Shown: in pieces, positions 14,096 through 64,000 of the stretch
Position numbering within the stretch: position 1 is the stretch's first letter
Layout of the letters: every line of letters begins with the position of its first letter
NCBI GenBank assembly: GCA_044892525.1
Contig: CM097887.1
Location: 8,246,001-8,310,000, forward strand
DNA: 64,000 nt
Source of the DNA: Schmidtea polychroa
Taxonomy: Eukaryota
Direction: 5' to 3'
Translations under genes and position numbers: made by a program
Notes under the pieces: generated by a model
Database searches by the model: none
What the model was told of the DNA's origin: nothing
The model's input: only the letters and a program-made list of their open reading frames with translations

Positions 14096-16824
14096 CAGGG
14101 ATGGCGAACCTTTTTTTGACTGCGTGCCAATAAATATTATTTTTATAAAATGAAAATACATGCGTGCCAATACAAATTATTTTTATTAAATGAAAATACA
14201 TGCTTTTAAAAATTATATATAGATTCATTTCTATAATATGCTGACATGTTTTTTAATGTGATTTTTGTTGCTGAATATTTCTCGATAATGCATCAATATC
14301 CGGATCATAGTTTGACAATTTTAATGAAATACAAGCCTCCCCACATTCATCGGTAAGTCTGTTTCGTACATCAGATTTTATATTATTCATAATCGAAAAT
14401 AGACTTTCACAGCTATACGTTGATGAAAATATTGTTAGAATAGCTAAAGACAATTTCTTCATCGCATGAAATGTTTCTGGGAGCGAACACCATGTCTTCA
14501 ACAACATATTATTCATGTTTTCGTATTCTTCTTCATTTAATCTTTTTTTTTCATTATTTTCTATTTCTTGCCTTAACTCTATAAATTTCAGCTTCCAAAT
14601 AGAACTTGATTGAAACTCTGCCAACTGCATTTCTAAATTCTCCAACTGTAACCAGTCTAATTGATCAATTTTAGCAGTTTCCATATCAAACTTGTCTGGA
14701 TATTTAATAAAGTTAATTAATGGTTGAAATTTTTTGAAATCTTGAAATCTATTAGCAAAATTGTCTTGTATGTCACTTATAACTGTATAAAATTTATATT
14801 AATTTCATAGACTCCATGAATAGAAAATCTTTGAATGTGATCTTTCAACAAAGGAAAATACTTAAAATTATTGTTGTCAATATCGCGTTTAAATATTACT
14901 AATTTGGACTCAGAACCTTCAATAATATCGAACATTACATCAATTGATTTTCCGGGACCTTGCAATTTAATATTTAATTCATTTAAATGGTTGGAAATAT
15001 CCGTTAAAAACATTAATTTGGTGATCCAGTTATTATCAAAAAGTTCAGGAAATTCGGTTTTTTTATCATTAAGAAACATGATAATTTCATCAAAACATTC
15101 TACAAAACGTTGTAACACAAATCCTCTACTAAGCCAGCGTACGTGATTATACATTAACAATCCATGATAATTTGAACCTACCTCTTGTAGAAGCAACTGA
15201 AATTGCCGCTTATTCAAAGCTCGAGCTGCTATAAAATTTATTATTTTGGAAACAATACTTAAAATATCATCAAATGCTGCCAATCCAGACTTCGCACATA
15301 GAACTTCTTGATGAATTATACAATGAAAATTAATAATTGGATGCCCAACGTGTTCTTGAAAAAGAGATACAAAACCAGCTTGCCGTCCTATCATTGAGGG
15401 AGCTCCATCAGTTGTAATTGACACTATTGTTGATGTATCTATCTCAGCTATTTGAAACATTTTTATAACTGCATCACTAATATCTTTCCCAGTTGTTTTT
15501 GCTGATAAGGAAACTAGTGAAAGCAATTCCTCAACTATTTTTTCTCCTTTAGCATAACGAGCAATTATGGACAAGCGAGCTGAAGATGTTACGTCGGTAC
15601 TTTTATCAAGACATATAGAAAATAGCTTTGCTGAACGTATATCATTTATTTTTTTAATATTAATATTTTTATGCATTTTTAATATCCTGTCTTTAACAGT
15701 ATTTCGACTTATACTTAATTCTTCAATGCGCTTAAGTATCTGCTCTTTATTTTGAAAATCTTCAAATAAATGTGGTGCACATTTAATGAAAGCTTCTTTA
15801 ATATAATCTCCATCGCTAAATGGTTTGCTATGAGTATCAATAGTCTTGGAAACCTCAAAACTAGCAGCAACTAAATAATTTGTATGTTTCAAAAATGTAA
15901 TGAATGAGTTTGATTGGAAATTTTTATTTTTAACTTCACGTGCAATATATTCTTTTTGTTCTGAATCACTTTTAGATAAAAGAAATGAATGAGTAGTTTC
16001 ATAATGACGTTTTACTGAGGATGTTCTGCACACTACTGTATTTCCACACAACGCACACAGGGCATTGTTATTGCTTTTCATCATTCCATATTTATCAGTC
16101 CACCAATCTTGAAATGGTCTGTTAGAGCTGGCCTCTGTTTTCCTTTTCTTATTTTCTGACATTCTAAAGTTGAAACATATTATTTATTTATCATTAAAAT
16201 TGTTAATGAATTACCTTTTGAAATCAATTATAATTGTCTTCTAAAAATATAAATAGATATTTTTTATTAGCAAAAAATAATACTAAAATAAGAAAACACA
16301 ATTTTCAATCGCACTTACAGAGTTTTTAACTGAACTGAATTAGAATTAGTGAATTTCAATTTTGGCGAGAATGCAAATATTAAAACAATTTTCAATCGCA
16401 CTTACAAAGTTTTTAACTGAACTGCATTAAAATTAGTGAATTTCACTTTTGGCGAGAATGCAAATATTCATATATATATGTATGTATATATTTGAAAATC
16501 CAAAGCATACTATATTCATTTTAACATTTTTTTTATATTTAAAATTACATGTTCATACTTGTACATACCTATACCTACATACGCAAATAATATAATTATA
16601 TTTTAACGTTATGAATAAAGGCGCCAGAAATCTGGAAGTTCGTTTTTAAATAACAAAATTTATGCATTAAATTTGAATTGAGTTCACAATTTTTTCAATA
16701 TCAAAAATGCATTTGGATTAGTCAGTACATTACATATGTATGAAAATGAAAAATATTATACGTGCCAGCGAAAATTTATCTGCGTGCCACTTTGGGCACG
16801 CGTGCCATAGGTTCGCCATCCCTG
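14096..16824 (-). mobile_element. hAT transposon, Buster/Charlie/SPIN-like, full length (2729 bp)
   Basis: 16-bp TIR cagggatggcgaacct; perfect 8-bp TSD gtctaaaa (14088-14095, 16825-16832); cgtgcca subterminal motifs; 87-bp tandem duplication in the 5' UTR (~16298-16470). Confidence 0.96.
14253..16162 (-). pseudogene. hAT transposase (GTF2IRD2/ZBED8/Buster-like), one frameshift
   Basis: BED-like finger (CALC...KRHYETTH), LDKSTD, ITTDGAPSM, FHCIIHQE, VRWLSRG and STYSCESLFS dimerisation motif. A frameshift near 14790-14800 links to FYTVISDIQDKFANRFQDF. Confidence 0.93.
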
Positions 16825-24323: not shown

Positions 24324-26290
24324 ATGTCAAAAGAAAAAAGAATTGTTCACTCAAGACGAGCCTGTGCTCAAAAAGCAATTTCACTTTTATGGGCGGATAA
24401 TTCTGAGGACGAAATGGAAAACCTTGATGAGGAAGATGTTACCCTGATTGAAAATGACATTGAAATGGGTATCGACGAAACAATAATAGAAGGTATATAA
24501 GCTAGCTACAAATTAAAATCAGCATTTATGGTGACCAAAGTTTTCTTTTTATGTTTTTAGACATAGATGTTGATGAGGAATCTAAAGACTTATCTGATGA
24601 GTCAGGTACATTATTTCGATTTCCTAATATATTTCAATCGAATTCGTATATTTGTTTCTGTTGCCATTTCAGAACGTGATTCAGATGTGTTGCATTCAAC
24701 GGCTTTAAATATAAAATGGCAAAAGAAAAAACGGAGATTGTTGGAATTCCCTACACCTACAAAACTAGTAGATTTCGGAAAAGTGAAAGTGGATATTGAA
24801 CCTGCAACTGCCTACTCTTCATTTGAAATCACAACAAATTTTGAAGATCTTGTAACACTCATTATTGAACAAACTAAATTGTATGCTCAACAACAGGGAA
24901 TTATATTCGATGTAACAAGTGAAGAGATAAAAGCATTTCTGGGTATATGCATAATTATGGGCTATAACAGATTACCAAATCTCCGTGACTATTGGTCAAC
25001 TGACAGAGATCTCCATGTAGATGCAATTGCCGATGTGATGACAGTGAAAAGATTTGAATTTATCCTAAAGAATTTGCACTTTAGTGATAATGCTCTTCAA
25101 CCACATAAAGACAATCCGGAATACGAAATAGCGTACAAAGTACATCCACTAATAAACCATTTCAACAAAGCGTTTCAAGCTGCAATGGAAATGGAAAATG
25201 AAATGTCAATTGATGAACACATGATTAAGTTCACTGGGAAAAGTGCAATGAAACAGTACGTCAAAGGAAAACCCATACCCTGGGGATTCAAAATGTGGGC
25301 CCGAGCATCATCACACTCTGGATATGTTCATGAACTTGACATGTATCAAGGCAAAGTTTATAATGAAGGTCGCCAATTTGGTCTAGGTGGAAGTGTGGTA
25401 ATGCATTTGGCAAAGAGTCTTCACAACACAAACTGTATCCTGGCAATGGATAATTTCTTCTCCTCGGTAGAGCTGTTTTTCTATTTACGTGAAAACGGTG
25501 TTCAAGCTATTGGTACTATCAGAACATCACGAAAACATTTGCCAGATGATGTACGTGCTAACAAGTGTATGAAAGAGGGTGATATTTACTCTTACGTTAG
25601 CACTAATGGCAGTATCTCATCAATAAAGTGGATGGACAAACGTCCTGTCACTATTCTATCCAATTATGAGACTCCTTTTGAAACCACGACCGTTATGAGA
25701 AGACGAAGAGGTACGGCTGGTAAAATGCCTAAAACTGTTCCAAAAATGGTTTCGACGTATAATTCAATTATGGGAGGTGTTGACATTGCAGATCAACGAA
25801 AAGAGGCATATGGAATCGACCGAAGGTAAGCAAAAATTTACAGCCTCTGTGCACATTATAACTCTACATACATTGTTTGTTTTGATTTTTTTACTTAAAG
25901 GTCAAAAGTGAAGTTCTACTTACGCATTTTCTTTGACCTACTGGATATTGGTGTGTGTAATTCCTATGTCATTTTCAAGAAACTAAATGGGGCAACCTAA
26001 TGAAGGCTCTTGACTTTCGCAGATCTGTGGCGCTATCTCTCACTGGTCGTTACAGTAGTCGTCAGAGAGAGACATCCGCCAATCCTCCTTCAAAGAAAAT
26101 TCGACCGAGTAATGCTGCTTGTCCTACACCACAACATTTACCAGTATTCACAGAAGACAGAAAGCGATGCACATACTGCAGCACCTGAAGACATTATTGC
26201 CGCAGCAACATTAAATGCAGTTCATGTGATGTTCACCTCTGTCTGAATGCTCAACGTCAGTGTTATTCACTTTATCATATAATTGACTGA
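24324..26290 (+). pseudogene. piggyBac transposase with three introns (exons 24324-24492, 24561-24605, 24673-25825, 25901-26290)
   Basis: GT-AG introns of 68, 67 and 75 nt keep the frame. DDD motifs SIDEHM, AMDNFF, MGGVDIADQ; C-terminal Cys-rich domain CTYC..CSSCDVHLC..C..YH. One frameshift at ~25990 (G4 run) and an in-frame TGA at 26186-26188. Confidence 0.9.
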
Positions 26291-34700: not shown

Positions 34701-35064
34701 AATATACAATCTTTGCTCTTCATTTTCATAAGACTATAGATCAATAAACTCAAGTTAAATGTATTCATAGAAAATTAAGAAAGAAATTGCAAATAATAAA
34801 CAAAAATTGGATAAAAGATTTTAATAGAAAATTAGTATCTAAAATAAATTAACAAGAATTTACCATGGAAATAAATAAATTAAATTACCAAAATAACCTA
34901 TTGCAATTTGCAAATCTCTATCAAAATCTGTCATTAAATATATTATACAAATTTTAATATTAGATTTAATAAATTATCTTTTCGCATTATTATGTAAATC
35001 TTTAAAACGAGCGTGAATTAAAAAATTTGTTTAAATTTAAAAAAACGTTTTAATTTAACTCACG

Positions 35065-37170
35065 ATGGATCAAGAGTGGCCAGATTTAACTCTAGCAAAT
35101 CAAGCTAAAGTGTCGAAGAAAAATGTCAAAGCAACTATCGAAAAGGAAACCAAAATCGTAAACGTTAACAAAGAGAAAAAAGAAACAAATTCCGATGCAA
35201 AAACTCAATGCAAACCAGTTGACATAAAGACTGCTATACGGGAGTTCAACGAGAAGTTTGCTTATCAATATGATTTTGATTCTAGTCGGGAATATAAGCT
35301 AAAATCTCATTGTTCAGTGTCAAAAGAATGCGCGAGCACCGGAGCATCAGTCGAAGAATCCTTTAAAAGCATGATGTTTTTGGAAAGCATCATTTGCGTT
35401 CGAATGAATTTATTGTACTTCTATTTTCACGAAGCCAATCTAAGAAAAGACTCATATATGATAAAAAATATGGATAGCAATGGCTGGATACCATTGAAAA
35501 TAGTGATGGATTTCCCTCGTTTGAAGAGAACCAAACCAACATTTAAAGATATTTTCGATGTCTGCCAAAAATTATTGCTACCACCATTTACAATCCAGTA
35601 TGGATCTGTAGGAAATTCCTATTTAGAAATCGATGAAACGAACAGCTTGATCAGAAGAAATGACATGGAAGACTTTGAATCAACATTTAGAGGATTTGAA
35701 ATATCAAAAGAAATTGATTTGAAAATGAGATCAGAGTTGCCATTCCCAAATTACTCATTTTCCTATTTTGAAACCGAATTAGAACCTTTAATAGAAAGAT
35801 TTATACCAGATGTTATACCTCAAATAAAGGTGGAAGAAAATGATGAAAATATAACCTTCGAATTTGGAGCGAACGAGGAAACTACAGTTCAATCTAAGAA
35901 AATTTACCGAAAAAGACGTACAACAATGGAGTCACAAAGCGACTTAGATGAAAGTAATGTTTATTTAATAACATTGAACGGTAAAACTGCGGAATGGCAT
36001 GAAATAAGCGACAGTGATTCTTTTGTCGAACAAACATATCCTGATTCCGAAAGAAGAGATTTGTTGAAGAAAAGTTTGCAAGAAACATTCAACATCAGAA
36101 GCAGATATCAATCCTTTTCCAGTTGTTCGACATACGACAGTAATGATGAATCTGATTCATACTTACCAGATTCTCAGCTTAGTATTGAAGAAAAAATGTC
36201 TTTGATCAATACAAACAACAATCCTTCGGTACTAATTCAAAAAATGAAACCTTTAAGTCAAGAAAATCAAGAATATGACTTCCTGAATGAAGGCGTCATT
36301 AGTTCATACCACAACCCAATTGATATGTTTAATTCCAACTTTTTGCGTATTCCTAACTATAAATCCGACGAATTGGATAAATTATTGGAGAACATTATAT
36401 TTGAATACAAGAAAAGCTATGTTCCGCAGGAGCTGACAAAAACTATAAGGAAACCTAAAATTCGACAGACCATTACAAAAACTAGGAACCATTTGAATTT
36501 TTACGATTCTGAAAACGACGATATTCGATCAATTGATGATCCGATGATGGGATATTACTTGAATAAAAATAGAAGAAAAAGAAATTCATCGTCCAGCAGT
36601 TATAGTCAATATCCCGACTCAGGCAAATTATTGTCAAAGGGTTTAGAAATTCCACATCAAAATCATCCTGGAGAAAAGCTATTATCGGATGAATTTAAGC
36701 TTAATCTTTATTTAGAATTCCGAGAAAGTGCCTTAAAAGATAGAAAATTGACCGGCTGTGGCCGATCTGCTGATATGAATGCTCTATTACGTTTCTGGTC
36801 GTTTTTCTTGAGAGAAAACAGTCAGAAAAAGATGTATCGGGAATTCCAGGAATTAGCTTGGGAGGATGCTGAACACGGATATCGCTATGGTGTTGAATGC
36901 GTTTTCCGCATGTTTAGCTATAAGCTTGAAAACAAAGACAGATTCAATATGGATGAATACAAGGACTTCCAAAATAATGTATTGAAAGATTTGAAAATGA
37001 ATAGCCTGTATGGTTTGGAAAAATTCTGGGCATTAAGGCAATATGGTAATCTAACACTTGAAGCCTTACCTGAAATCGAGGAGAAACTCAAAGAGTATAA
37101 AACTAAAGAAGATTTTCGCAAGAACTTTGTTCCTCCACAAGGATTTTACGGCTATAAACTTCTATTTTAA
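35065..37170 (+). CDS. LARP1: La-related protein 1 (La motif + DM15 cap/TOP-binding domain), intronless, 701 aa
   Basis: La motif [38 protein letters not shown]15 repeats [44 protein letters not shown] and [10 protein letters not shown] closely match LARP1 family consensus. Confidence 0.93.
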
Positions 37171-40317: not shown

Positions 40318-42389
40318 GTAGCACGTCAATTGCGCGGACGCCAATTGCGCGGGTCCAACTGCGCGGTAGGCAATTGCGCGGGTAGTCAATTGCGCGGCCG
40401 TCAACTAATTATTATTAAATAAATTATTAAATGGGCTTACAGTTGCTATGAGGCCTCAATTTGCGCGGCCGTCAATTAATTATTATTAAATAAATTATTA
40501 AATGGGCTTACAGTTGCTATGAGGCCTCAATTTAGGCCATCAGGCCTGCCTAGCCATCGAGCTGCAACTGTCAAGGCGGGTATATAATGCGAGTGTTTTT
40601 TCACAATTGACGAAATTGTAGTCATGTCTTTAGAGTTTGGTAAAAGCGAGAGGGGCAACAAAACTTTAATTTATAAGAATTTCGAATACGTTAAGGAATG
40701 CGAAAATATGTGTGGTACTACCGCATGGCGTTGCAGGTTCAACAAGAAGTTCAAATGTAAGGCTCGAGTTGTAACCGATGACAGTAAAGTTGTTTGTGAG
40801 AAACAACCGGAACACACGCACAGTGGTAACGTCGCAACAGCAAAAGCACGAAAGGCGGTAGGAGAGATGAAAGAAATGATGGGCGCGTTGATGGCTACAC
40901 CTAGTTCCTCACAGGCGTCCGTTTCGGTGGCACTAGATGATCACGTGCTGATGGCTTTGCCTAAACGATCGTTGCTGACTAGGACATTGCAGCGAAAGCG
41001 TCAGAAGATTACGAAAGAAACCAACAACGGTCAAGAGCTACCGGCTATTCCAGGCGATCTTCGCTTTGATATACCTGACCGATTCAGGCATATGATTCTG
41101 TACGACTCAGGACCAGGTGATGATCGAATAATCCTGATGGGCTGTTTAGAGCTTCTAGATGAATTGGCTCGTGCTGATGTATGGATTGCCGACGGGACAT
41201 TCAAAGTCGTCCCGAGCATTTTTTTTTCAACTGTACAGCTTCCATTTCAACTTCTCTTCCGGTATCAACCCTGCTGGTCTGTACTGCCTCATGACGAATA
41301 AGACGGCTGAAACCTACGGACGCGTTTTCGCTGAAATTCGCAACCTCGTTCCTTTGGCTTCTCCAACGACAATTTTGATAGACTTCGAGAAAGCGGTGAT
41401 GAACACAATGAGTCTATCGTACCCGTACGCAAGAGTCACAGGTTGCTATTTTCACCTCTGTCAAAGTGTTATTCGTAAGGTCAACGTGATAGGACTAAAG
41501 ATTACCTACGAGAGTAACGATGAGGTCCGTGGGTACGTTCGATGTCTTTCCGCACTGGCGTTTGTTCCCCCCGATGATGTGGTGGAAGCTTTCGAGTTGT
41601 TGGTTGAAACAATGCCTGCCGATATCGATCATCTGGAAGAGCTCACGTCTTTCTTTGAGTTAACGTATGTCCGCGGACGTCGACGTCGAGGACGGGCCGA
41701 AGTGTATGCTGCAGCGATGTTCCCAATATCTATCTGGAATCAGCACGCCGGTGCATGCGAGGGAATTGCAAGAACAACCAACTCAGTTGAAGGATGGCAT
41801 CACGGCCTTCAGACACTGTTCCAGTGTAGCCATCCGACTGTCTGGACGTTCATGGCAGGATTAGAACGGGACATGAATCTACAAAAGTCAAAGTACTTGC
41901 AAGGGGCAACCGGTTTGGTGCAGCCGTCTCGTAAGACGTATCGTCAACTCAACGATCGCGTTGTAGCAGCTGTAGCAGCTTATGGTCGTACGGACATTCT
42001 GACATATTTACGTGCCATTTCACATCTGTCGCACTGTTAATTAACATTGATATTCATACTTACTAGTATTATTTAAATTGGACTTTTATATTGATATTGA
42101 TATTTGTTTGATTAATTTTGTGATAGTTTATTTAGGTAATATATAACCCACTTGATTTTGCAAAAGTGTGATTTTTGGTTATTTGTGACGAAAAATAATG
42201 AAATAAATACCATATAAATATAAATAACAAAATTTGGAAACAAGGGAAAAATGTAATTAACCACCTCATCAGTTTACTATCCGCGTAGTTGGACCCGCGC
42301 AATTGACGCCCCGTAATTGACTACCCGCGCAATTGACGTCCGCGCAGTTGGACCCGCGCAATTGACGTCCGCGCAGATGACATGGTTTC
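40318..42389 (+). mobile_element. Mutator-superfamily transposon, Phantom type with repeat-array TIRs (2072 bp)
   Basis: TIRs built from 5-7 copies of a ~15-bp (gt)caattgcgcgg motif; 9-bp TSD tttattatc / tttattata; 71-bp internal tandem duplication at 40391-40532. Confidence 0.88.
40624..42040 (+). pseudogene. FLYWCH + MULE DDE transposase (~471 aa), single +1 frameshift
   Basis: FLYWCH (LIYKNFEY...TAWRC...CKARV...HTH), WIADGTFK, LIDFEKA, GCYFHLCQ, RTTNSVEGWH. A T9 run at 41219-41227 needs T8 to restore the frame. Confidence 0.9.
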
Positions 42390-47048: not shown

Positions 47049-47970
47049 AATACACAATGCTTTAGCGTGTTTTGCATTAAATACTTTAATTTCCGGTTAT
47101 TTTTTCGATGAAAAATAATTTAATCTCGACGGTCCTGATGGATGTATTGGAGAGATTTTAGCAAAGACCTATTTATATCTTCCAAGCGAAACTTTGAAGG
47201 AGAAAGTCCCATGATTTAGGTAGGTTTCTCTTTCTACTATGTACTTTTTCTGGTGTTTCCATCCAGCAGAATGAACAAACCGCGGTGTCAATATGTTTTC
47301 CAGGAACATCTTATTCCCAATCATCGCAATTCACGCCGTTATCTTTACACTTTTCAGTAAGATATTGCGAGCATTCATGTTAGCAGCAGTGATTTAGAGA
47401 CAAAAAATTCTAGCGCGACGGGTTTATGCGAATAATAGTCAATTCGACATTGTTCCCCAAATGAAAACAGCCATTTTGACAACCTGGAATGGAATTAATC
47501 AAAATACCCAATACACAATGCTTTAGCGTGTTTTGCATTAAATACTTTAATTTCCGGTTATTTTTTCGATGAAAAATAATTTAATCTCGACGGTCCTGAT
47601 GGATGTATTGGAGAGATTTTAGCAAAGACCTATTTATATCTTCCAAGCGAAACTTTGAAGGAGAAAGTCCCATGATTTAGGTAGGTTTCTCTTTCTACTA
47701 TGTACTTTTTCTGGTGTTTCCATCCAGCAGAATGAACAAACCGCGGTGTCAATATGTTTTCCAGGAACATCTTATTCCCAATCATCGCAATTCACGCCGT
47801 TATCTTTACACTTTTCAGTAAGATATTGCGAGCATTCATGTTAGCAGCAGTGATTTAGAGACAAAAAATTCTAGCGCGACGGGTTTATGCGAATAATAGT
47901 CAATTCGACATTGTTCCCCAAATGAAAACAGCCATTTTGACAACCTGGAATGGAATTAATCAAAATACCC
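47049..47970 (+). repeat. Apparently perfect 461-bp tandem duplication (47049-47509, 47510-47970)
   Basis: Both copies start aatacacaatgc and end caaaataccc; no differences seen by eye. Confidence 0.92.
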
Positions 47971-51874: not shown

Positions 51875-54800
51875 TATTTTTTTAAACTAGAACTAATAAC
51901 TCCTCGTTAGCCATTATAGGTTCTCTTTTGTTCTGGCTTCGCAAATAATATCGATTCACTTCAATAACTTTAGTCTTTCAACTCACACATAATCTAAATT
52001 GCCAATATTTTAACTTTTCGCTTTAGTTTCAATAAATTTATTCTAGCACAAATATTCCTATCAATACAGATTTCTCTTAAATTCACGATGCAACAATAAT
52101 TAAATTTCTTTTTAATAAACTCTTCCGCAACTTTGATCACGTCCGGCTCACCAAATATCTTGGGTATATTGTAGTTTGTCAGTGATTATAAGGCTGTGTA
52201 GTACTAGTCTGACTCCGAACGTGTTATTTAATAACAATGTAACATATGTATTGGACTTCATCTTCTATTTACCAAAACGCTAACAAGGTAAAGGAAGTTG
52301 AGAACGTTTAAAGAGTAAGTCATCGACAACGAAAATGATAGAACTGAAGTTGAAGATATTGTCGACAACTTAAGCCCTTCCATCAGCAGCTTAGTATTGA
52401 AAAAGAAAATCAGTCAAGCAGTAGTTCCAAGACATGGAGTTCACCTACTAACAAATTTTCATCAACACCATCAATATCAGCTGTAATCAAACTCCGCGAG
52501 TGTGATGGTGAAAACTAATAATCATTTGGTGCTTAAGAGAATAGTTGCTATAGGCAAGGTTTACCTTATTCCTTAATTTACCTTACAAAAATTTGACAAA
52601 AATTCCTCTAGGTGTCAACAAGTAGATGAATTAAATTTGTTATGCTTTCTTAGAATTATTTTTCTTATCACTATTTCTAGTGTTAACTATGACCATATAT
52701 GAATTTTTGTAAAAATGAATCGCAATATAAACGGAAAATGATATTTATGCGGTAGAAAATGTTTTCGATGCCAAATTAATTCAGAGAAGCAAGGCGCATT
52801 CATTTAAATGCTGAGCAGAAAAGTTTATCAATATATCTATGTGAATCACAAGAATTTAATTAAGAAATAAGAAATCTAAAAGTGTCAGATTTTCATGAAT
52901 TTAAATTTAATATCAACGTTCTTTGAAATATAACGCCATAAAAAATAAATGTTTTCAATTTAATTTCTATGATAAATTATTAGCACAACTACCCATAGTT
53001 GTGGTATTTTGTAAAGGAATTTGTGCATTTTTAGGTTGGTATTTCCCATTTATTTGTTTAAATCTACTCATTTTTCATCATTCTTTCATTATTTTCACTG
53101 CCAATTTGTGATAAAAATAATTCAACATTTTGCATGTCAATAAACAAAGGTTAAACATAATGATTTCACAAAAAACTGAAAGAAATAACAACGAAGTGTG
53201 ATACTAATCACAGTGTTTTGTCGCGATTCAATATCATTCCACTTTATTGTCATTTCAAACTGTTACAAATTTAAATGTTTTCGATTGAAACCTTAATATT
53301 ATAGGAATGGTTCGAATTTAGAATCAAAACTTGATTAAAAAATTTGTCATGAAAATGTAAATTTGAATACAAGATCCAACTCGGAAAGCCTGAATTATAG
53401 TATTATATTTATCTTTTGGTTTCACCTTTGACCTTTTTTTAATTCAATAATTTAATTTATAACGATATTTCGGCACAGTCTTTATTAAATGTGTATTTCA
53501 ATCGTCATAGTTATTTTAAATATTATTGAAAATCTGGAATCGAGTATAAAAGGAAAACGGCGGTTTGCGCTAATAACATATATTATAATGAATTTTTCGA
53601 TGAGAAAGGAACAATGATGAATTAGGGAGAGTGATTAGTGGTAACAAAAATATTGTGTGTTGCGAAAAGGAGACAGGGTAAGGAAATTGATGCGTAGAAA
53701 AAATTTTTACCTTTACGGTATAACAAGACGGCTTAACAACATTTAAAGTGGCGCCTTGTACTTCACATGATTAAAATATTAACTTAAGCTAGCATTAGAT
53801 ATTTGCATTTATTAAAAGTACTTATTTTAATAAGTAACTAATCCTTGTATCATTAGTGTGACAGACGTACTACAGTAATTATGGACACGCAGAGTTATCA
53901 TTTAAAAATCTAATTTAGAAATTGTGACTAAGTTATAATAAAAGATCTGTTAACTTTCCCCTCCAAATAAATATAAAGAGATAATTGTAAACAATGTCAT
54001 ATAGAATCAAACCTAATATAATTGTTGGGGTTAGTTGGTTGTCGGTCATTTATCAAATCAATAACTACTATCTGACTCCGATCGTGTTTTATTCAATGTT
54101 GGGCTGAGTCGAAAATTTAATCGTTGAAAAATAAGAAAGTAGGGAAGTAGAACATTAAGAAAAATAAAAATAAAATAAATAAAATCAGAAATAAAATAGA
54201 ATAAGGTATAAGGAAAATAATAATTAAGACATAAGAATTAAAACAAAAAATAAAATTAAGAAAAGATTAAAATAGAACAAGTTGACAAATAAATAAAGAG
54301 GAATTCAAGAAATAATAAGGAAATTAAGGAAATAAATAGAAAAACATATTAAAAATAAAGAAAATAAGGAGAAAACAACCTAAAAACAAGAAAATTATAT
54401 TAAATTAATAGAAATAAGCGGTACTCAACTCTGATTGGTCCGCACAAATAAGAATTTGATATATATACAACTACCAAAAACATTAAATTTACTGTTAACC
54501 CCGAGCATTTCATAGGTAAGAAAAAATGTTTACTGTTTCTACTGTTAACCCCGAGCATTTCATAGACATCTACAACTCACGGAGACTTATTTCAAGGATC
54601 AGCAATACAAGTAGAGCAACAGTTAATTCGAAAAACTTCACAGCAATTCGAACTCAGTCACAGCAATCGACATTCGACGAATTATCATCAGACTAATTTG
54701 GAACGACTAACGTTAATTTTCCGATTCAGCCTAATTCCATAGTAAGGGATTTTTATTTATGATATTGTTTTTCGAAGTTAATAGTAAATATGTATATTTA

Positions 54801-54991
54801 ATGAGTAATTAAACTTTTAAATTTAACCAGACTCTCTTTTCATTTGATCCTGAATAACGATTTTGATAAAGTAAATAATTTAAATGTTTAAAAGTATTTA
54901 TTGGTAACAGGTGAACTCTTACATAATTTTTATGGATATTTATTTTGAAGTGATAGTTTTATGATTTCTAATATTAACGAGAAACGTGGCG

Positions 54992-55109
54992 TTGAGATAC
55001 TCCATGTCATGGTGTGAGGTGCCTTCGGGAGCTCAGCCGGTGGACATGGAGTATTTCAATCACGCAGCTAGATTGGGCCGAAATGTGAAGGCTTCTTCAC
55101 GGGTCCAAT
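54992..55109 (+). other. Two adjacent strong predicted hairpins
   Basis: ttgagatactccatgtc / gacatggagtatttcaa stem with an inner cTTCGg loop (54992-55059), then attgggcc / ggtccaat with an inner gtgaag-gctt-cttcac (55072-55109). Confidence 0.55.
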
Positions 55110-56400
55110 TGCTGAAGGACTTAAAATCTGTCAGAGTACCGAAATATAGACCGAAAGGAAACCTTATGAAATTTTCGAAAATAGGATATGTGCTTCACAG
55201 CGACTGAGGGAGTTCTCCTATTAACTCTGTATTGTCCAGAGTCGTCTTATAAGACATTCATGCCACTTCTGTCTATAAATCCGAACTTACCATGTGGGGG
55301 AAGATACCATTAAACATCCATCGCTGGTTTTTCTAACATATCGAGAAGTTGAAATTGCATTCGGTAGATTTTTGAAAAAGTAAATCTAATTTAGGTCATC
55401 TCTTTCAGATGCGACATCCAAATCTTAGCATATGATGAGGAATTTACAATAAAGGAAAAGTAAAACATAAAACCACAATAATACTGTATTCAATCACATA
55501 TATTAACAAAATCTGGTAATACCCATTGAATAATTTTCATGCTGTCGCGTCGAAATATCCACTACTGAAATATGCTTCATAGAGTCTAGTTGGCTGGTTC
55601 GTAGAGATCTTCCATCGTTCAAAAGCATCCAATATTGAGGAAATTACGAGTCGTAGTAAATAAATCCAACATCATAAGCTCAGATGGGAATCGACACGCG
55701 ATGTAACATTTGCAGTTCGCTCAGTACGGTTGATAGTTACAGATAAAATTTCCATCGAATAGGCACCCATACATACAGACATACTGCTAACATAACTATG
55801 AGTAGCGTCATCCGGTCAGAAATATGCATGAGAAACAGCAGAATCATTCCGAATGCCTCTCACCGCAGGGAATGCCGCCATGTGTCACCCTCTCTAAGAT
55901 TCTTAGTGTGTGAGTAGTAATCAGTGGTCCTATTAGATAATGCTGACATGAGATGTGACTTCCAGATGACTGACTCTTAAATTTCACTACTGATAAAGGT
56001 CATTCGTACCACTAAAAAGATAAGCCAAAATAACCAGTAACCGACTACTAAGATAAGAGACTCTCTAAAGTGCACTCATTAAAGATAATTTTGCTTAAAT
56101 TAAATATTCTAAATAAAAATCGAAATTGTTGAAGGGGTATTTTAATTAATAACCGAAAATTCAAACCAAACTTTATAACTAAACCATAGGAAGTTTCACC
56201 TAAGTGTTGTAGAGGTTTATCGTAATTCTGATTAGATGTTACAAATAATAGTAGTAGCCTTTGAGCCAAATTTAAATTAACTAAAGCATCCACAGGAATT
56301 TTTGGGTTATAAAATAGCTAGTAATATTGTACTTAAATTTCTCATATTCCATGTAAACTACGTATCGCAATAGAAAACTAAATCCGATAACAAATTATTA

Positions 56401-58261
56401 TGTAATTACAATGTTTTTTTACGATGCCATATTTCTACGACGATATCACCGTATGGTATGGATAAGGGGTGATCATAAAATAGTGACGTATAGTTTATAC
56501 GAAATTACGAGTTGTTACTTATTCCGCTACTCGAGGTAAGGGTGCAAGTTTTTACTAGTCGCATTTGGTCCAAAAACCTTATTTTGCATTAGAATAACAA
56601 CAAATAATCAGCGAAATTTAAACGAAGTGTAGTATAGTGTATTTGTAATGAAATAGGTTTATTCACTCCGGCATGAACAAATCCGTAAATTGCCTTTATG
56701 TGCGATAGATAGAAATCCAACTCGAACGCGATAGACGAAAATTAAAATTTTTACAAATAATTTGCATTCGTCAGGGAAGCAATCAGGGCGTTGAGGAATA
56801 ATTTTTGTAAAGGATACGTAAAATATTAGTAATCAAGGGTGAAGGGAAGGATCCTGTTTCATCGACTCGTCTTGTTTTCTTCCAGCACTAAGTATCCAAT
56901 AGCGAATAAACCGTATATCTGATCCGAAATTTTTAGATATAGTCACCATAGTTTTCTTCTTTAGCCATCCATTATGTTATCAAACAACAAATCAGCTTTA
57001 CGTCCCTGCTTCTCCTGCTCAGATAAAAATGCAGTGATTAAAGATCTTCAAGCCCAGATCGGTCGATATAAACGAAAAATCGACGAGCTGGAAGGGACAT
57101 GGTTTAGTCCCGCTCGGATGAAGGAGATCCAAAAGAAGCTCGATCGTAGCGAGCATTGCCGGGACGCGCTAATATCTGAGAGCCGTGCCCAAAGAAGTCT
57201 AATCAGAGAACAATCCGAGGCACTGCATAAGGTTTACGTGCAGGCGGCTACAACCCGAAAGATCGTGCAGATTCCCATCCGAGAGGCCGATGACATCTTT
57301 CCGCCTCATCACAACCTTTCCTCGAATCCATCTCCACCGTTCAAGAGACCGTGCCGAGACTGCGTCGAAACCGAATGGTCCCCCAAGCGTCCAGATGTTG
57401 TCATCACGGGTACCAGTAAGCCCCCCACTGCTAGTCCATCTGTATCAGTCACCCTTCTACAAGTGGCATCTTCAAACAAACCCAAGCGCAAACAACTCTC
57501 TCGAGCAGAGCGCAAGAAGAGACAGCGCGAGCGCGCCACTGCAAAGCCAAACATCCCATCAACAGAGGACTCAACCAACGGTGGTAACTCTCACGTGTCC
57601 ATCGACCTAACAACGGGACCCTCAGCGCGAATCATATCAGCCGCTGGCGTAAGGTGGGAAGAGAACGCTTCCGAGTTTTTCAACCTCGACGAATTATTCG
57701 CCGACACTGAATGGGAGAAACAATAAAACCCCAGTGGCGGTCAGGATGAGGAACAAGGATCCGATCTATGTTGATTATGATGTTTTCTCTTCTTTCGACA
57801 AACATTAGTAAAGTGTACAGCTGAATCCTGGTGTCATAACGTTGAAATTAATAAATCTTGTTGTCTTACACGTTTTCGTTCATGAATAATTAGACTTTAA
57901 TTAAGTGGGTTGAGTAGAGAACCCGCAAGATCTAGTGAGAATTTCCCAATTTGCATTCAGCGAATTCCTGATAGGTGGTTGTGTAAGGAAATGGACGTAA
58001 GCCCTTCTATCGGCAGTCGTGAATGGGAAGTCGAGGCCTCAGCAAGGAGTAGTTTTAAGGCAGAAGCTCACCTGCTTGCTGGCGTCTCGCCTGCATAGTG
58101 CAGTACCAACGTGAAGTGATTCACGGGCACTATGTTGGAAGAAAGTTATGTGGGGTTTCACTCCAGGTTGACAAATCGGTGGCACCTTTTATTCGAGATG
58201 GACAATCAACCCTTAGACCCGCCAACATGGTAGAATGGTCAGCCGAGGTGTGACCCCAACA
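56401..58261 (+). mobile_element. 5' LTR (~1.86 kb) of a complex Ty3/gypsy element, containing an ORF
   Basis: Starts TGTAATTACAAT (cf. TGTAATAACATT at 17990) and ends CCCCAACA just before a PBS; same layout and length as 17990-19837. The left boundary is inferred. Confidence 0.65.
56974..57726 (+). CDS. Intact 250-aa PCFSC/EGTWF-family protein (coiled coil, CxxC, basic tract, acidic C-terminus)
   Basis: Open ATG-TAA frame, GC-richer than its flanks, with motif-level conservation across two diverged paralogues in the window. Confidence 0.85.
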   Translation: MLSNNKSALRPCFSCSDKNAVIKDLQAQIGRYKRKIDELEGTWFSPARMKEIQKKLDRSEHCRDALISESRAQRSLIREQSEALHKVYVQAATTRKIVQIPIREADDIFPPHHNLSSNPSPPFKRPCRDCVETEWSPKRPDVVITGTSKPPTASPSVSVTLLQVASSNKPKRKQLSRAERKKRQRERATAKPNIPSTEDSTNGGNSHVSIDLTTGPSARIISAAGVRWEENASEFFNLDELFADTEWEKQ

Positions 58262-58268
58262 TGATTTT

Positions 58269-58286
58269 TGGGGGCTCAGCCGGGAT
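58269..58286 (+). promoter_or_regulatory. Primer-binding site complementary to tRNA-Pro
   Basis: TGGGGGCTCAGCCGGGAT matches the canonical tRNA-Pro PBS TGGGGGCTCGTCCGGGAT at 16/18 and lies 7 nt after the LTR-terminal CA. Confidence 0.85.
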
Positions 58287-58603
58287 CTACAATCGATCGA
58301 AATTTCTATTAACGAATGCGAAATTCACCGAGATTTTCATAAAAAATTAAAGGGATTTATCACATCGATTTTCTGTTTTCGACCGACCATTGCTTGACGA
58401 ATGCCAATTGACTATTGATTATTAAATTATATTAGGAACTAAGTAGAGAAAATCAAAATGTGGATAATAGAAAAATTAAGGATATATATAAATAAAGGAG
58501 ATAAAGTAGTCAAATTAAATAATTAACAATGGTTAAAGAAACCAATTAACGAATTAACTATTAATTTACTACATATTATTAAAACATTACTTTTCCAACA
58601 GCT

Positions 58604-59089
58604 ATGACAGAATTCGCGAACCAAATGCAACAACTGCTCAAGTTTATCGATATAGAAAACGACTCCCTAACAACACTGACGCATAAAAGAGAAAAAATCA
58701 ACGCGATATTACTGCAAGCAATCGGACAAACACCAGTCGTACCTAATCATCTGATATTAGCCACAGGCCTAAGTCGCCCAGATGGAAAAATAAACCCCGA
58801 AACCGTATATCAGTGGTATCAAGAGAGATTGAACCACCCAGCATTAAATCTAGATTATCAGCGTCTAAAAGACTCACTAAATACAATACCAGATGCAATC
58901 GAACAAAAAATACAGGAAAAAGTTAACCAATTACGAACTTGTATAGCCTGTAAACTCCGTCCTATTCGCGTATTATTCTTGCCGTGTGGACACCTCAGTC
59001 ACTGTGAAGAGTGTGTAAAAGACCTAAAAAGATGCACGATGTGCAAATATGAAATAAAAGAGACCCATATGGTCTATTATGGCGAATGA
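58604..59089 (+). CDS. 161-aa protein with coiled coil and C-terminal IAP/MDM2-type C3HC4 RING finger (putative E3 ligase, no BIR)
   Basis: CIAC-x11-CGH-x3-CEEC-x6-CTMC; a pyrimidine tract and AG lie directly before the ATG; AATAAA at ~59194. Confidence 0.85.
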   Translation: MTEFANQMQQLLKFIDIENDSLTTLTHKREKINAILLQAIGQTPVVPNHLILATGLSRPDGKINPETVYQWYQERLNHPALNLDYQRLKDSLNTIPDAIEQKIQEKVNQLRTCIACKLRPIRVLFLPCGHLSHCEECVKDLKRCTMCKYEIKETHMVYYGE

Positions 59090-59705
59090 AACGGCCGGCG
59101 ATGTAACAGCAAGTATACGATGTTTGAACAAGAATGCATGAAATTGTTGAAGTAACACGTACTGTTAATGATTCAATCTTTATGTTTATGATAAATAAAT
59201 TCGTCTTTAAAAAGTTTTGATGATTAGGACTAATAAAATTTGCATGACGAATGAATATTTGCGTGTTTGTTTTGTTTTATTTTTTTTGTGGAATCAAATG
59301 AAGAGAGGGTTGAATAACGTGGAATTAGTCCCAATATAGACCGCAGGGGTACAAACCGAGCCACCTTCGGGCGGTACGTCTTATTGCAAGAACCCGTTGG
59401 GAGGGGATAACTGATCAACCCAAGTAAGAAGCGTAGGGCGGGGTACCATCGCATATGATGAGAAGTTTTTGCGACATGACTGATCACCATGCAAATGTAG
59501 AAATGGATCATCGCGATCGTCGTGCGTTTTGAGCAAGGGGGGAAAGGGGAAACACTCCCAAGCGGTAAAGATTAAGTCGACAAATTAAAAGTAGACAGAG
59601 AAAATGGTAAACTAGAGTAAAAGAAGAAAAGAGAAATAGAAGCATGCAGAGCGAGGAATATTGAAGCCGAGCTGTCGAATAATCCAGCCGGTCAAGGAGG
59701 AAGAC

Positions 59706-60179
59706 TGAGCTGTTGAATAGTGCCAGCCAGTCGTAAGGTCGAGTTGTGAAAAGTCCAACCGATCAGGAAGGAGGAAGATTGAGCTGTTGAATAGTGCCAG
59801 CCAGTCGTAAGGTCGAGTTGTGAAAAGTCCAACCGATCAGGAAGGAGGAAGATTGAGCTGTTGAATAGTGCCAGCCAGTCGTAAGGTCGAGTTGTGAAAA
59901 GTCCAACCGATCAGGAAGGAGGAAGATTGAGCTGTTGAATAGTGCCAGCCAGTCGTAAGGTCGAGTTGTGAAAAGTCCAACCGATCAGGAAGGAGGAAGA
60001 TTGAGCTGTTGAATAGTGCCAGCCAGTCGTAAGGTCGAGTTGTGAAAAGTCCAACCGATCAGGAAGGAGGAAGATTGAGCTGTTGAATAGTGCCAGCCAG
60101 TCGTAAGGTCGAGTTGTGAAAAGTCCAACCGATCAGAAGGAAGAAGATTGAGCTGTTGAATAGTGCCAGCCAGTCGTAA
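59706..60179 (+). repeat. 74-bp tandem array (6 full units + 31-bp partial) in the retroelement leader
   Basis: Units start at 59706, 59780, 59854, 59928, 60002, 60076 and 60149; a degenerate half-unit lies at ~59668-59705. Confidence 0.97.
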
Positions 60180-60834
60180 AGACCTAGAAAAGCGAGAGAT
60201 AGCAGTTAAGCTACAATGAGATAATATTTAAATTACTAGTGATATGGAATATTAAAGCTAGCTAGAACAAATGGAATGTAATTTTGAAAATTCGAGTTTA
60301 GAGAGGAAATAAACGAGCTCGTGGAAAAGAAAATAAGATTATAAGGAAAAAGGAAAGGGAAGAAGGAAACGAATTAAAGAGATAATAGAAAATAAAGAAT
60401 AGATGAAATGATGATAATGAGTAAAGAGGAAAGTAACTAACTAATTAAAGGGATCCCAGTGAAGTAGAGAAACTCTACGGAATATTTTTTTTGGTTAAAC
60501 CGGGAAAATGCATTTTATTGGTTCCAGAGTAGAACCGAGCGTAATAATAGTGAATATGAAAAGTAAAATAGCGACAACAGCGCAAAAGGATTAGGAAAAT
60601 GAAAGGGGGGTAATAAGCAGAGACCGACAACGACCTATTTTTACTATAATTGATAACGAATAGATAATTATTACGACTTTATAGATAATTGTTACTACCC
60701 CATATAGATAATTTAAAATCGACGGAAAATACGGGCTGATGGGATATTATAAACCGCAGACAGGATTTCACAAAAGATAGGGGAAGCACAAACAGAAACC
60801 TAAAAGGTGTCTGTTTTTGAATGTTGTAGAAAGA

Positions 60835-63800
60835 ATGATGAAGTCGTGTAAGCAAATGCAACACGAGATCATTTTTTCATTTTAGATATCAAGCCAATCC
60901 AGCCAACCAAGACAATCCAGAACCTGCATAAAGGAATTCGAAGAAATCGACAATCAACCAAGGATAAATCCATTCAGAACCCGCACCGAGAGACACAGCA
61001 ACCGGAAGACTCCCGAACGGAAGAAGTATTAGCAGCCATCTGCCAAGGATTAGAAACACAATCAGAACCGAACGCGACCAATTCAATAGCCGCTAATTAC
61101 CAAGAAGCGTAAGAAAGGAATCACGGATAAACCCAATCTTAGATCTTCAAGTAAGCCAGGAGACGTATTATTTTCAGGAGACGAATTACAACAACTCAAA
61201 AGAGGACGATCCATTAAACATCAAAGAGGAATATCACAAGGATCCAGAAGAACCAATCAAGTACCCATATTTGACCAAGAAAATCTCGGATATACCCCTA
61301 GTCGATCTCGAAGTAGAGAAAGTCTGTCCGATATCACTAATAGTTTAGCAACGTCAACCGAAGAATTACCAGCCCAAAGTTTAGTCACATCGTTAGACAA
61401 TTTAAAAGAAACAGACGAACCTAGAACACCAATCATGACGAATGTCGTAAAAACCGACGAGTATAAAGAGAAGTTCAGAGGAGAACCGTTCAACGGAAAT
61501 GCAAACAAGCTAGCAACGTTCATAACTAATTTTGAAGTTTATATCACTGTGTGTGGATGGACACCCGAAGCAATTAGTAAAAGGATGCCGTTGTTTTTGT
61601 GCGATAGTGCATTAGAGGTATATTTAGAAGCTAAAGAGAGAGACACGAAATTAGAAAAGTGGGAAGATATTAAAACATTCCTGAAGAAAACCTTCGGAGC
61701 CAGTAAGCCAATCAACCAGGCGTTGGGCGAACTAGCAAATAGGAAACAAAGAGCAAACGAATCGATAACATTATATGCCAGTGAATTGCGGAGATTAGCG
61801 AAGAAAGCAATGAATGGAAAATTACCCGAAGAAAATCTGATCGGTTATTTCATAGAGGGATTACGCCGAGAAGAAGTAAGAGCCTCAGTAGGTTGTCAAA
61901 TGTGCAAAACATTAGAGGAAGCCATAGATTGGGCTACAAGATGCGAGCTCCACCTTCCAGCTCAAATGAATATTATGCAAGAGGAGGGAAGGATAGCGAC
62001 AGCAATAGCGAAAGCGGATAACGGAGATAACAACAATCAAGAACCGAAAATGAATCAATTTATACCAGGAGCGCACCAAATTTTCAAACCACCACAAGGA
62101 CGATCAAACGGGAATAATGGTAATCGTAACAACCCGAATAATGAGAACAATTTCAATAATCGGCGAAATATGAACGATAACAAGCAGTGCCGAACATGCG
62201 GTAAACCAGGACACTGGGACAGAGATTGTTATAGAAATTCAAATTGTAATCGTTGCGGACGGCGTGGACATACCGAAAATGTATGCCAATTGCGAGGCTG
62301 TTTTAACTGTGGTCAGCCAGGTCACATCTCCAGAGATTGCCGAGAAAGGGGCCAACAACAACGACCACCACAGCGAAATAATAATTATATAGCGAATCCG
62401 CAACGACAAAGTAACCCTAACGAAGGAAAACAAATGAACGTTATGCAGGAAATTTCGCAGATGAAACAGATGATGCAACAAATGATGAGACCAAGACAAG
62501 AATCAGCACCACAACAAACCCAGAATATACGTATGATGAGGAGTACCGAAAATCTCAACAATTATGAAGTGCATCAACATGTACAAGAATGGCAAAGGCT
62601 ACAGGCCGAGGAAGAGAGGATAAAACAAGAACGCAACCAACAACGACAAGAACAACCATTGCGAATAAATATGATGAAGTTAGTAAAAGACATGAAGAGC
62701 CAGTATTGCTACAATTACGGGAAAAGCCCAAGGGTAGTACCCATGACTGAACCAGAAAAAGTAAAGGAAATAACAACGGAAATGAAAACAGAGAATTCAA
62801 CCACGATTTCAAAAGGAAACCAGAGAATTCAGAAAATATTCTGGAAAAAGATAAAGGATAAAATCGAAAAAGAACATAATAAAGCGAAAACCGAGACAGA
62901 AGATGAAAATAACAAGAGCAAGGAACAAACCAGTCAACTAAACCACCAAATGCTACAAGAATCAGAATCAGAAGAAACAACAATATTCGAAAGAAAGAAA
63001 CTAAAGAGAGTACCAAGGATGAGAAACTTGCAAATCAATATGATGAAAAGGACAAAAGATGAAGCATCGTCAGACGAAGAAGAAGATTATGTAAGTAGTT
63101 TGGGTGGAGAAATACTACAGCCGAATGAAATAAGCGAACCCCCAAAAGGGGAAATCAAAGAGGAAGAAAGCGGAAACGAGATAACCAGTGAAAGTGAAGA
63201 CGAAGATATCGAAATAAAGTTGAGAAAAGCAAGGGAGGAAGCGATAAAACAGGTAGCCGAAATACTCCCAGTAGTAGTGAGAAACCAAGAGTTCATCGAC
63301 GTAATACCATTCAGGCGATTCGTGCAAAAAGTGATGAAATTGGAAAGAAACGAGAAAGATCTAATACCAAACGAGGAAAAATCAATTATAAAAAATTATA
63401 TGGAAAAAATGAAGCAGGCCGATACCACGCGGTATGTAATAAAAATTGGAACGAGTAGAGGACTTGAAAGAATGTGGATAAAAAATACAGTCACCGACGA
63501 ACTTTTCGATTGGATACGAGAACATTTGGGAAGTTCGAGAAAGAAAGAATATCTGTATCAATACCAAGGAGAACAGATCAAACCAGATATGCACTTAGTA
63601 GATGCACTAATATGGCCAGGAGAAACGCAAATACTGAAGTTGCATAAAGAAAAACAACCAGCCAACCTTTACGATTGGGCTAAAGATGCCAAGGCAGAAT
63701 ATGATTTTAATATCAAATTGAAATTAGAACAAATAAAACAATGTACTCTGAGACGAAACCTGGATAAGCTGATCAAACAAATTCAAGAACAAGTAGAAGA

Positions 63801-64000
63801 CAACTGGGATTTACTCATCACCAGACGAGCCCCAGCCATGTACGAACTAATGAGCCGGTTGCGAGATACAGAAATGCTCCGAATGAGTGATTGGAGAACC
63901 ATAAATTTGATCCACAAATATGGAAGGTTAAAAGAAACCCAGCCACAGAGGTTGGAAATAACCATATGGTTACCGAACGAAGAAAAACGACGAATAAAAA
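60835..64000 (+). CDS. gag: Ty3/gypsy Gag polyprotein, spliced 5' end (exons 60835-60847, 60886-61108, 61143->64000), runs off the window
   Basis: Capsid-like region (FNGNANKLATFITNFE...GW...RKQRANESITLYASELRRLA) and three CCHC knuckles at 62188-62340. The frame is open from 61090 to 64000 and the first in-frame ATG without splicing is 61435. The ORF track misses it because it has no stop in the window. Confidence 0.9.

Follow-up and report, generated by a model that had tools for sequence, protein, structure and literature searches.

A very recent 30.4-kb Burro-layout Ty3/gypsy element of Schmidtea polychroa that probably works like a complex retrovirus

Planarian Burro (GYPSM1) elements (Jurka 2007; Grohme 2018) are giant gypsy-like long terminal repeat (LTR) retrotransposons of >30 kb. 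Their first open reading frame (ORF1) of 4,873 amino acids (aa) combines gag with three CCHC knuckles, MATH, ubiquitin-like (Ubl) and Bcl-2-like domains, an in-frame env, protease (PR), reverse transcriptase (RT), RNase H (RH) and integrase (IN), and ankyrins; the elements also carry BIR and accessory ORFs with ubiquitin and apoptosis domains (PMC6431247). The family has already been tied to stem-cell survival in regeneration, and the B-IAP protein of Burro1 is reported to protect stem cells (Lee et al. 2026, Dev Cell, as cited in PMC13465017). Here, a 64,000-nucleotide (nt) stretch of the Schmidtea polychroa genome (contig CM097887.1, positions 8,246,001 to 8,310,000; G000:C3:8246001-8310000 in our coordinates), referred to as the window, was analyzed together with the 781 Mb of genome searched. 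The window contains the 5′ third of a 30,401-bp Ty3/gypsy element, whose features are all on the + strand and are given in window positions unless prefixed. Judged by its layout, the element is of the Burro kind, a described one, and is not Burro1; the match is to the published description and not to a sequence. The initial annotation of this locus had regarded the architecture as undescribed, a view that has to be given up. In our joint reading, this very recent element probably works like a complex retrovirus.

Extending the sequence rightwards revealed the PR-RT-RH-IN genes, an identical 3′ LTR, and a target duplication. The 4-bp target-site duplication has its left copy at 54093..54096 and its right copy at G000:C3:8330498, after the 3′ LTR. 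The 5′ LTR (54097..58261) is 4,165 bp long, has TG...CA ends, and is identical to the 3′ LTR at G000:C3:8326333-8330497; it replaces the ~1.86-kb LTR starting at 56401 that had first been proposed. Paired TG...CA LTRs with a 4-bp target duplication were found in 11/11 insertions (the window copy and 10 further ones). The LTR pairs of the 10 further insertions had no mismatches in eight copies and one or two in the others, so that the family is very young. The window element is a very recent insertion of this young, multi-copy giant element, and the exact 20-base LTR end of its LTR version occurs 193 times in the genome. The LTR ORF, RING ORF, tandem array, and gag follow one another in the same order in 10/10 further close insertions, confirming that they are linked modules and not nested insertions. 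The same order was seen in 20 more diverged copies, one belonging to a subfamily whose frame has 4,811 codons and 19 taken from matches sorted by their RING similarity, a choice that favors intact genes; the array unit was not found in one of the 20, and the stretch before gag was absent from one. Copies one element length apart were observed at G000:C4:46.24-46.29 Mb and C2:177.68-177.72 Mb, a spacing that suggests either a duplication in the assembly or tandem elements joined head to tail with LTRs in common.

The polyprotein lies in an open frame that runs from 61090 to the window end and continues past it. The Gag core (Pfam Retrotrans_gag) and three CCHC knuckles found by motif scan (62188-62229, 62245-62286, and 62299-62340) span 61435..62340. 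Downstream, Pfam matches follow in the order ubiquitin (E value, 0.23) and Bcl-2 (E value, 0.064), both weak and below the Pfam cut-off, viral fusion glycoprotein, protease, RT, RNase H, integrase, and ankyrins. The fusion glycoprotein, or env (PF24664; E value, 1.7e-67), occupies aa 1983-2322, in frame between gag and the protease, and a signal-peptide-like hydrophobic stretch was noticed at aa ~1710-1735, at the start of the env region. The protease, at polyprotein aa 2512-2603, lies outside the window, in agreement with the earlier remark that none was visible within it. The PR-RT-RH-IN order is accompanied by gypsy-type RNase H and integrase, and the nearest RT relatives are Ty3/gypsy proteins. 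The spacer between protease and RT is ~220 aa long and gave no Pfam dUTPase match at an E value of 1 (PMC6431247 used HHpred). Further ORFs of 128, 478 (RING-TRAF-MATH), 368, 239, and 222 codons lie 3′ of the polyprotein. The window copy is frameshifted between integrase and ankyrins, giving frames of 3,690 and 1,045 codons. By hand count, a single 4,732-codon frame is present in 54 of the 150 best RT matches, and a stop-free frame of at least 4,700 codons in 68 of the 150; the break is therefore specific to the window copy.

This family and the published Burro (PMC6431247) share a size of >30 kb, a single ORF1 of 4,700-4,900 aa with the same domain order, gag with three CCHC knuckles, Ubl and Bcl-2-like domains (in the window family, the Bcl-2 match and the third Ubl candidate are below the Pfam cut-off), an env in frame between gag and the protease, ankyrins after the integrase, a MATH domain in either ORF1 or an accessory ORF, and accessory ORFs with ubiquitin and apoptosis domains. 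In the window family, no BIR was found and MATH resides in the separate RING-TRAF-MATH ORF 3′ of pol; a Dugesia tigrina element likewise has MATH in an accessory ORF, but upstream (PMC6431247). No named Burro protein was found among the 120 RT matches listed. A sister family in the same genome (G000:C1:38.50 Mb and C1:26.64 Mb; L107-L114) has MATH inside a 4,791-codon ORF1 and a 392-aa BIR-RING ORF, and by these sequence features fits the description of Burro1 with B-IAP (PMC13465017); 150 or more BIR matches are present in the genome. RT-RH identity between the two families is 89%, and they were grouped with a support of 1.0 in a FastTree phylogeny of 36 sequences that included no named Burro or errantivirus reference. 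Besides the TRAF gene, they have three further 3′ ORFs in common, and the sister family carries a 160-aa homologue of the leader RING gene at the same place (28% identity; E value, 6e-21); its LTR ORFs are unrelated to the LTR gene of the window family. A subfamily with a 4,811-codon frame (L092 and L115-L117) was also seen, with identities to the window element of 96.5% in RT-RH, 36% in the LTR protein, and 41% in the RING protein.

Two genes lie ahead of gag. The first is the intact 250-aa ORF previously reported within the LTR, found at 56974..57726, with an acceptor-like (Y)nAG ending at 56964. Its product belongs to no known family, and no relatives were found in the protein collection, Pfam, or PDB (best Atlas score, 0.84). 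It contains a CxxC motif and a predicted dimeric coiled coil (aa 12-87), a basic Arg/Lys stretch, and an acidic-aromatic tail; CxxC, the helical N-terminal half, the basic stretch, and the tail are kept across versions of the protein that are 35-84% identical. Residues 8-118 were predicted as a parallel homodimer (score of 0.56, versus 0.00 for the best control), with runs agreeing in at least 93% of contacts and a partner predicted local distance difference test score (pLDDT) of at least 73; in calibration, the mark used for dimers was reached by 21/30 true pairs and 0/23 single chains from microbes and by 7/16 pairs from animals. Relative to the window, the ratio of nonsynonymous to synonymous divergence (dN/dS) of the LTR gene was 0.10 and 0.09 in two copies with dS of ~1, and in 15 others silent sites were saturated and dN was 0.23-0.28. 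Among the diverged copies, the gene has a stop in one and a deletion in one. The substitution pattern indicates that the LTR gene is under purifying selection, with dN/dS of ~0.1. Elsewhere in the LTR, a block conserved between versions (54957..55119; 79-92% identity, versus 65-78% elsewhere) is a candidate RNA element.

The second front gene corresponds to the RING-finger ORF of the initial annotation (58604..59089). It encodes 161 aa with a C-terminal RING of the inhibitor-of-apoptosis (IAP) type and without a BIR domain, as identified by Pfam (zf-C3HC4_3; E value, 3.7e-11) and by a structure search that matched cIAP/XIAP RING structures (E value, 2.4e-10); no near-length match to the protein was found in the protein collection. 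The gene is stop-free in 30/30 copies, and dN/dS is 0.06-0.20 in 19 diverged copies, a pattern by which it is under purifying selection; the 10 closest copies, with one to five changes each, give noisy values (0.17-1.33). Positive selection, suspected from identities of 71-100% among copies with identical RT, was rejected at dN/dS of ~0.1. With both front ORFs constrained and their order recurring, the proposal that the family possesses an accessory-gene set is borne out, a transactivator among its products being no more than a guess.

The LTR, primer-binding site, and RING gene form a block that occurs as deeply diverged versions on near-identical cores. Two copies differ from the window at 1/477 bases of RT, compared with 36% of the LTR gene and 18% of the RING gene, and the LTR gene diverges by >25% in 131/210 copy pairs whose gag is <3% apart. 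One gag cluster carries at least three front versions that are each present in several copies. Near 59,320, identity between versions rises from ~75% to at least ~90%; the position closely follows the poly(A) signal of the RING gene and precedes the structured stretch and array described below. The step is weaker for the four most diverged copies. Position 59,320 would mark the right border of a swappable block, and the front versions were likely swapped by recombination. Template switching between co-packaged RNAs is a known route to mosaic copies (PMC6894440). The copies compared had been chosen for divergence, and the sample thus shows that mosaics exist and does not measure their frequency.

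The region around the front genes contains a series of putative RNA signals. The primer-binding site (58269..58286), 7 nt after the LTR end, is complementary at 18/18 bases to the 3′ end plus CCA of the host tRNA-Pro(TGG) genes, in line with the tRNA-Pro site first noted; it occurs 1,058 times in the genome and is common to the sister family. The tRNA-Pro(TGG) genes themselves stand in a tandem array with a 475-bp period (G000:C1:130900600-130903600), and their pattern has 2,291 genome matches, which makes the primer tRNA gene hugely amplified. The leader (58287..58601) is A-rich, as noted before (43-49% A), and ends in an acceptor-like AG that lies 2 nt ahead of the ATG of the RING gene. A first intron is predicted at 54516..54565, its 3′ end repeating the sequence just before its donor; in 10/12 LTR versions, each with a sequence of its own, a donor lies ~410-420 nt from the LTR start (at 574 in one) and is followed by a copy of the sequence that precedes it, and the LTR start was not located in the remaining two of the 12. 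This predicted intron may mark the likely transcription start region, with a U3 of ~0.4 kb, in which case the LTR gene would lie within a 3.4-kb R region. A YAG, mostly after a pyrimidine run, is present 0-10 nt before the ATGs of both front genes in every copy printed, and is kept although the flanks turn over. Contigs of three presumed-RNA runs and one other run, compared with the window, showed no joint at the predicted sites, a comparison that cannot decide splicing.

Predicted poly(A) signals follow both front genes. An AATAAA at 57850..57855, the predicted R/U5 signal, is matched 126-143 nt after the end of the LTR-gene ORF in 10/12 versions, and one at 59194..59199, the predicted signal of the RING gene, 80-140 nt after the end of its ORF in 30/31 copies. 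Across both families, AATAAA occurs in 19/26 spacers examined, or in 22/26 when two family-B leader stretches are counted, which is weak evidence in AT-rich DNA. Beyond the second signal, a GC-richer structured stretch (59320..59570; z, −2.7, with 3 of 200 shuffles as good) is a candidate packaging or dimerization signal. It is followed by the 74-bp tandem array already described, which comprises 6.6 copies (59694..60179) and is non-coding, with stops in all frames; each unit forms two predicted hairpins (z, −4.15), and the 10 closest copies have 3-9 units.

Upstream of gag, a donor-like GTAAGC and an acceptor-like T-rich AG (60848..60885) are both conserved in 14/14 aligned copies. From the acceptor at 60885 to 61434, 29/30 copies are ATG-free, compared with ~7 ATGs expected. 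The last part of this stretch is a coding-type extension of 104 codons before the first gag ATG (61123..61434), which begins at an invariant ACG with A at −3 and G at +4 in 30/30 copies holding the region (1/31 is without it). The frame of the extension is kept in 29/30 copies and stop-free in 28/30, and dN/dS is 0.17-0.25 in the three most diverged copies. In nine copies, which are not independent, substitutions by codon position number 103/51/190 after the ACG, with indels of 6 nt only, and 72/91/111 before it, with many frameshifting indels. On balance, this pattern favors a start of the polyprotein at a non-AUG codon, ACG 61123. Weighing against such a start, hardly any change is seen in the 55 nt that follow the ACG, silent sites included, and this segment contains one donor-like and one acceptor-like site; RNA-level constraint could therefore explain the invariant ACG. 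Moreover, in the sister family an open, ATG-free stretch of 103 codons is present without any ACG in an equally good context. The sister stretch, 526 ATG-free bases at the same place, has no sequence likeness to that of the window family, and diverged copies of the sister gag start were not found among 150 matches. A literature search on non-AUG gag starts in gypsy elements brought up one item, on RTL8/PEG10.

A gag coding sequence split by two short introns (60848-61142) was considered and rejected, as the frame is kept in only 7/30 copies and many indels are frameshifting; of the spliced, three-knuckle gag originally proposed, the knuckles are upheld and the splicing of coding exons is not. 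Alternatively, an ATG-bearing upstream exon could be spliced into the AG at 61142 or 61177, making the ACG unnecessary as a start, a route that we consider possible but rather unlikely. The donor-like site at 60848, which has an upstream ATG, and the acceptor-like site at 61177 are conserved in 14/14 aligned copies, and 9/12 LTR versions have a phase-1 GT inside the LTR gene, in frame with 61177. However, reading the sequence through, the exon with the ATG at 60835 runs into a stop when joined to 61177 and is out of frame when joined to 61142, the two-intron version is in frame in 7/30 copies, and the LTR-gene GT is absent from 3/12 versions.

We propose the following expression model for the element. 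A single promoter near the LTR start would produce a non-coding leader, which would be spliced to alternative last exons carrying the LTR gene, the RING gene, the gag-env-pol polyprotein, and the 3′ genes, each of these exons with a predicted poly(A) signal of its own at the end. The LTR protein, with its coiled coil, basic stretch, and acidic tail, may be a dimeric nuclear regulator that, in the manner of Rev/Tat-type proteins, lets full-length RNA read past the two poly(A) signals upstream. Host death or TRAF signaling would be the target of the RING protein, a putative IAP-type ubiquitin ligase, and the polyprotein would be made in a long form from ACG 61123 and a short form from ATG 61435. 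The LTR-primer site-RING block may move between elements as one piece when co-packaged RNAs undergo template switching near 59,320.

Alternatively, the same element could carry its front genes purely as host-directed cargo, the LTR protein having no part in RNA control, an option that we hold to be the less probable. Most of the cargo does consist of ubiquitin and apoptosis modules (IAP-type RING, RING-TRAF-MATH, weak Bcl-2, and ankyrins), the B-IAP of Burro1, which is reported to protect stem cells (PMC13465017), provides a precedent for an anti-death or immune modulator, and the LTR genes are wholly different between the two families. Against this, the LTR gene lies in the repeated part of the element and retains its basic stretch and acidic tail across its diverged versions, and a regulator would be needed to carry the RNA through the two predicted poly(A) signals ahead of gag. 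That the LTR and RING ORFs are functionless passengers or nested insertions is highly improbable: the noisy RING ratios among the 10 closest copies (0.17-1.33 on one to five changes) would allow it, but the order is the same in all insertions examined, dN/dS is ~0.1 at dS near or above 1, a selection test that refutes this idea unless the codon alignments are wrong, and the sister family has its RING homologue at the same place.

Several observations weigh against a Burro-layout element working like a complex retrovirus, which is nevertheless our preferred reading. The window copy has its own frame broken between integrase and ankyrins, and the window family is without the BIR-RING gene and the in-polyprotein MATH of Burro1. 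The expression model is a prediction from sequence signals. The LTR protein has no homologue outside the family, and none in the LTR of the sister family; its putative role is read from its composition, and dimer prediction is easily passed by long coiled coils. In addition, the sample of diverged copies, ranked by RING similarity, is biased towards intact genes.

The extra codons after the gag knuckles, in which a ubiquitin-like domain had been noticed, contain two candidates near the window end. Domain A (63427..63660), wholly inside the window, remains a lead only: its Atlas score for ubiquitin clusters is 0.88-0.89, its model pLDDT is under 50, and the fold search scarcely probed it. Domain B starts within the window (63946..64000) and runs out of it; here, a fold could be assigned, with model residues 181-274 matching the ubiquitin family (Ddi1 UBL; Z, 10.7; root-mean-square deviation, 2.9; 83 aligned residues) in a model built from a six-row alignment (mean pLDDT, 54). 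Profile searches against PDB sequences gave no ubiquitin link for either domain, nor did a comparison of A with B, and a single-sequence fold of 63250-63999 was uninformative (pLDDT, 34.8). A third Ubl candidate lies at polyprotein aa 1269.

At the 3′ end, the polypurine tract that is usual, not defining, for Ty3/gypsy elements is missing, with purine runs of at most 5-8 nt in 120 nt. No purine run adjoined the 3′ LTR in 5/5 elements examined from both families, and the junction without a tract was the same in 10/10 copies. A conserved 40-nt motif able to form alternative hairpins stands before the 3′ LTR (G000:C3:8326290-8326332) and occupies the same place in elements L110, L114, L117, and L120, which represent both families. 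The same five bases precede both the primer-site region, in which the primer site is 7-8 nt from the LTR end, and the 3′ LTR. A literature search with a narrow phrase found no report of a missing polypurine tract.

Outside the element, the window contains DNA transposon genes at 3868-5145, 14780-16183, 24567-25826, and 40588-42037, which are of the Tc5/DDE_1, hAT-like (Spin-doc zinc finger), DDE_Tnp_1_7, and FLYWCH-MULE (two overlapping frames) types. A 703-codon open frame with La and LARP1 HEAT domains (35059-37167, +) may be a LARP1-like host gene or a retrocopy, and an exact 461-bp tandem duplication lies at 47049-47970.

Since the architecture is already published, the useful remainder of this work is sequence-evolution evidence that Burro front genes are real, together with a testable model of how a 30-kb, eight-gene element expresses its genes yet makes genomic RNA. 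Section 7 of PMC6431247 makes no mention of a gene in the LTR or a RING gene in the leader, nor of an exchange of front blocks, a start at ACG, or the absence of a purine tract; the LTR and leader ORFs may already be described in the figures or supplements of Grohme 2018 and Lee 2026. If they hold, a start at ACG, a front cassette with swapped alleles, and the lack of a purine tract would add three unusual traits to Burro, and complex-retrovirus-style control would have evolved outside Retroviridae. More speculatively, and with considerable doubt, Burro elements could be modular complex retroviruses of flatworms, in which an exchangeable front cassette of LTR regulator gene, primer site, and IAP-type ligase gene persists as several ancient alleles under host pressure while one gag-env-pol core spreads through the family by a sweep, the LTR protein acts as a Rev/Tat-like poly(A) read-through switch, the polyprotein starts at an ACG, and plus-strand priming proceeds without a purine tract.

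Several known systems share parts of this picture. Burro1 with B-IAP (PMC13465017) resembles the window family in bringing IAP-derived RING cargo into a giant planarian element; the 161-aa leader RING is a gene separate from the B-IAP-type BIR-RING and occurs in both families. The GAG-ENV-POL errantiviruses of Platyhelminthes, with an env of the herpes simplex virus (HSV)/glycoprotein B (gB) type, likewise have env between gag and pol and many young intact copies, and the available text of their description contains no mention of "accessory," "ankyrin," "giant," or "burro" (PMC13524379). Ty1, ONSEN, and soybean elements, with their recombinant "clans" and LTR swapping, are likewise described as mosaics arising by template switching in reverse transcription (PMC6894440). 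Unlike in these recombinant elements, the swapped block of the window element holds two protein genes with saturated silent sites, and the family has a common right border near 59,320.

Complex retroviruses encode regulators such as Rev and Tat of human immunodeficiency virus and Tas/Bel of foamy viruses; mouse mammary tumor virus has Sag in U3, and the glyco-Gag of murine leukemia virus is started at a non-AUG codon. The window element shares with them accessory genes from spliced RNAs, which are predicted here, a gene inside the LTR, a tRNA-Pro primer, and possibly a long Gag started at a non-AUG codon. Unlike theirs, its RT-RH-IN is of the Ty3/gypsy type, with no sequence homology between the systems, and the R region that seems to contain its LTR gene is very long.

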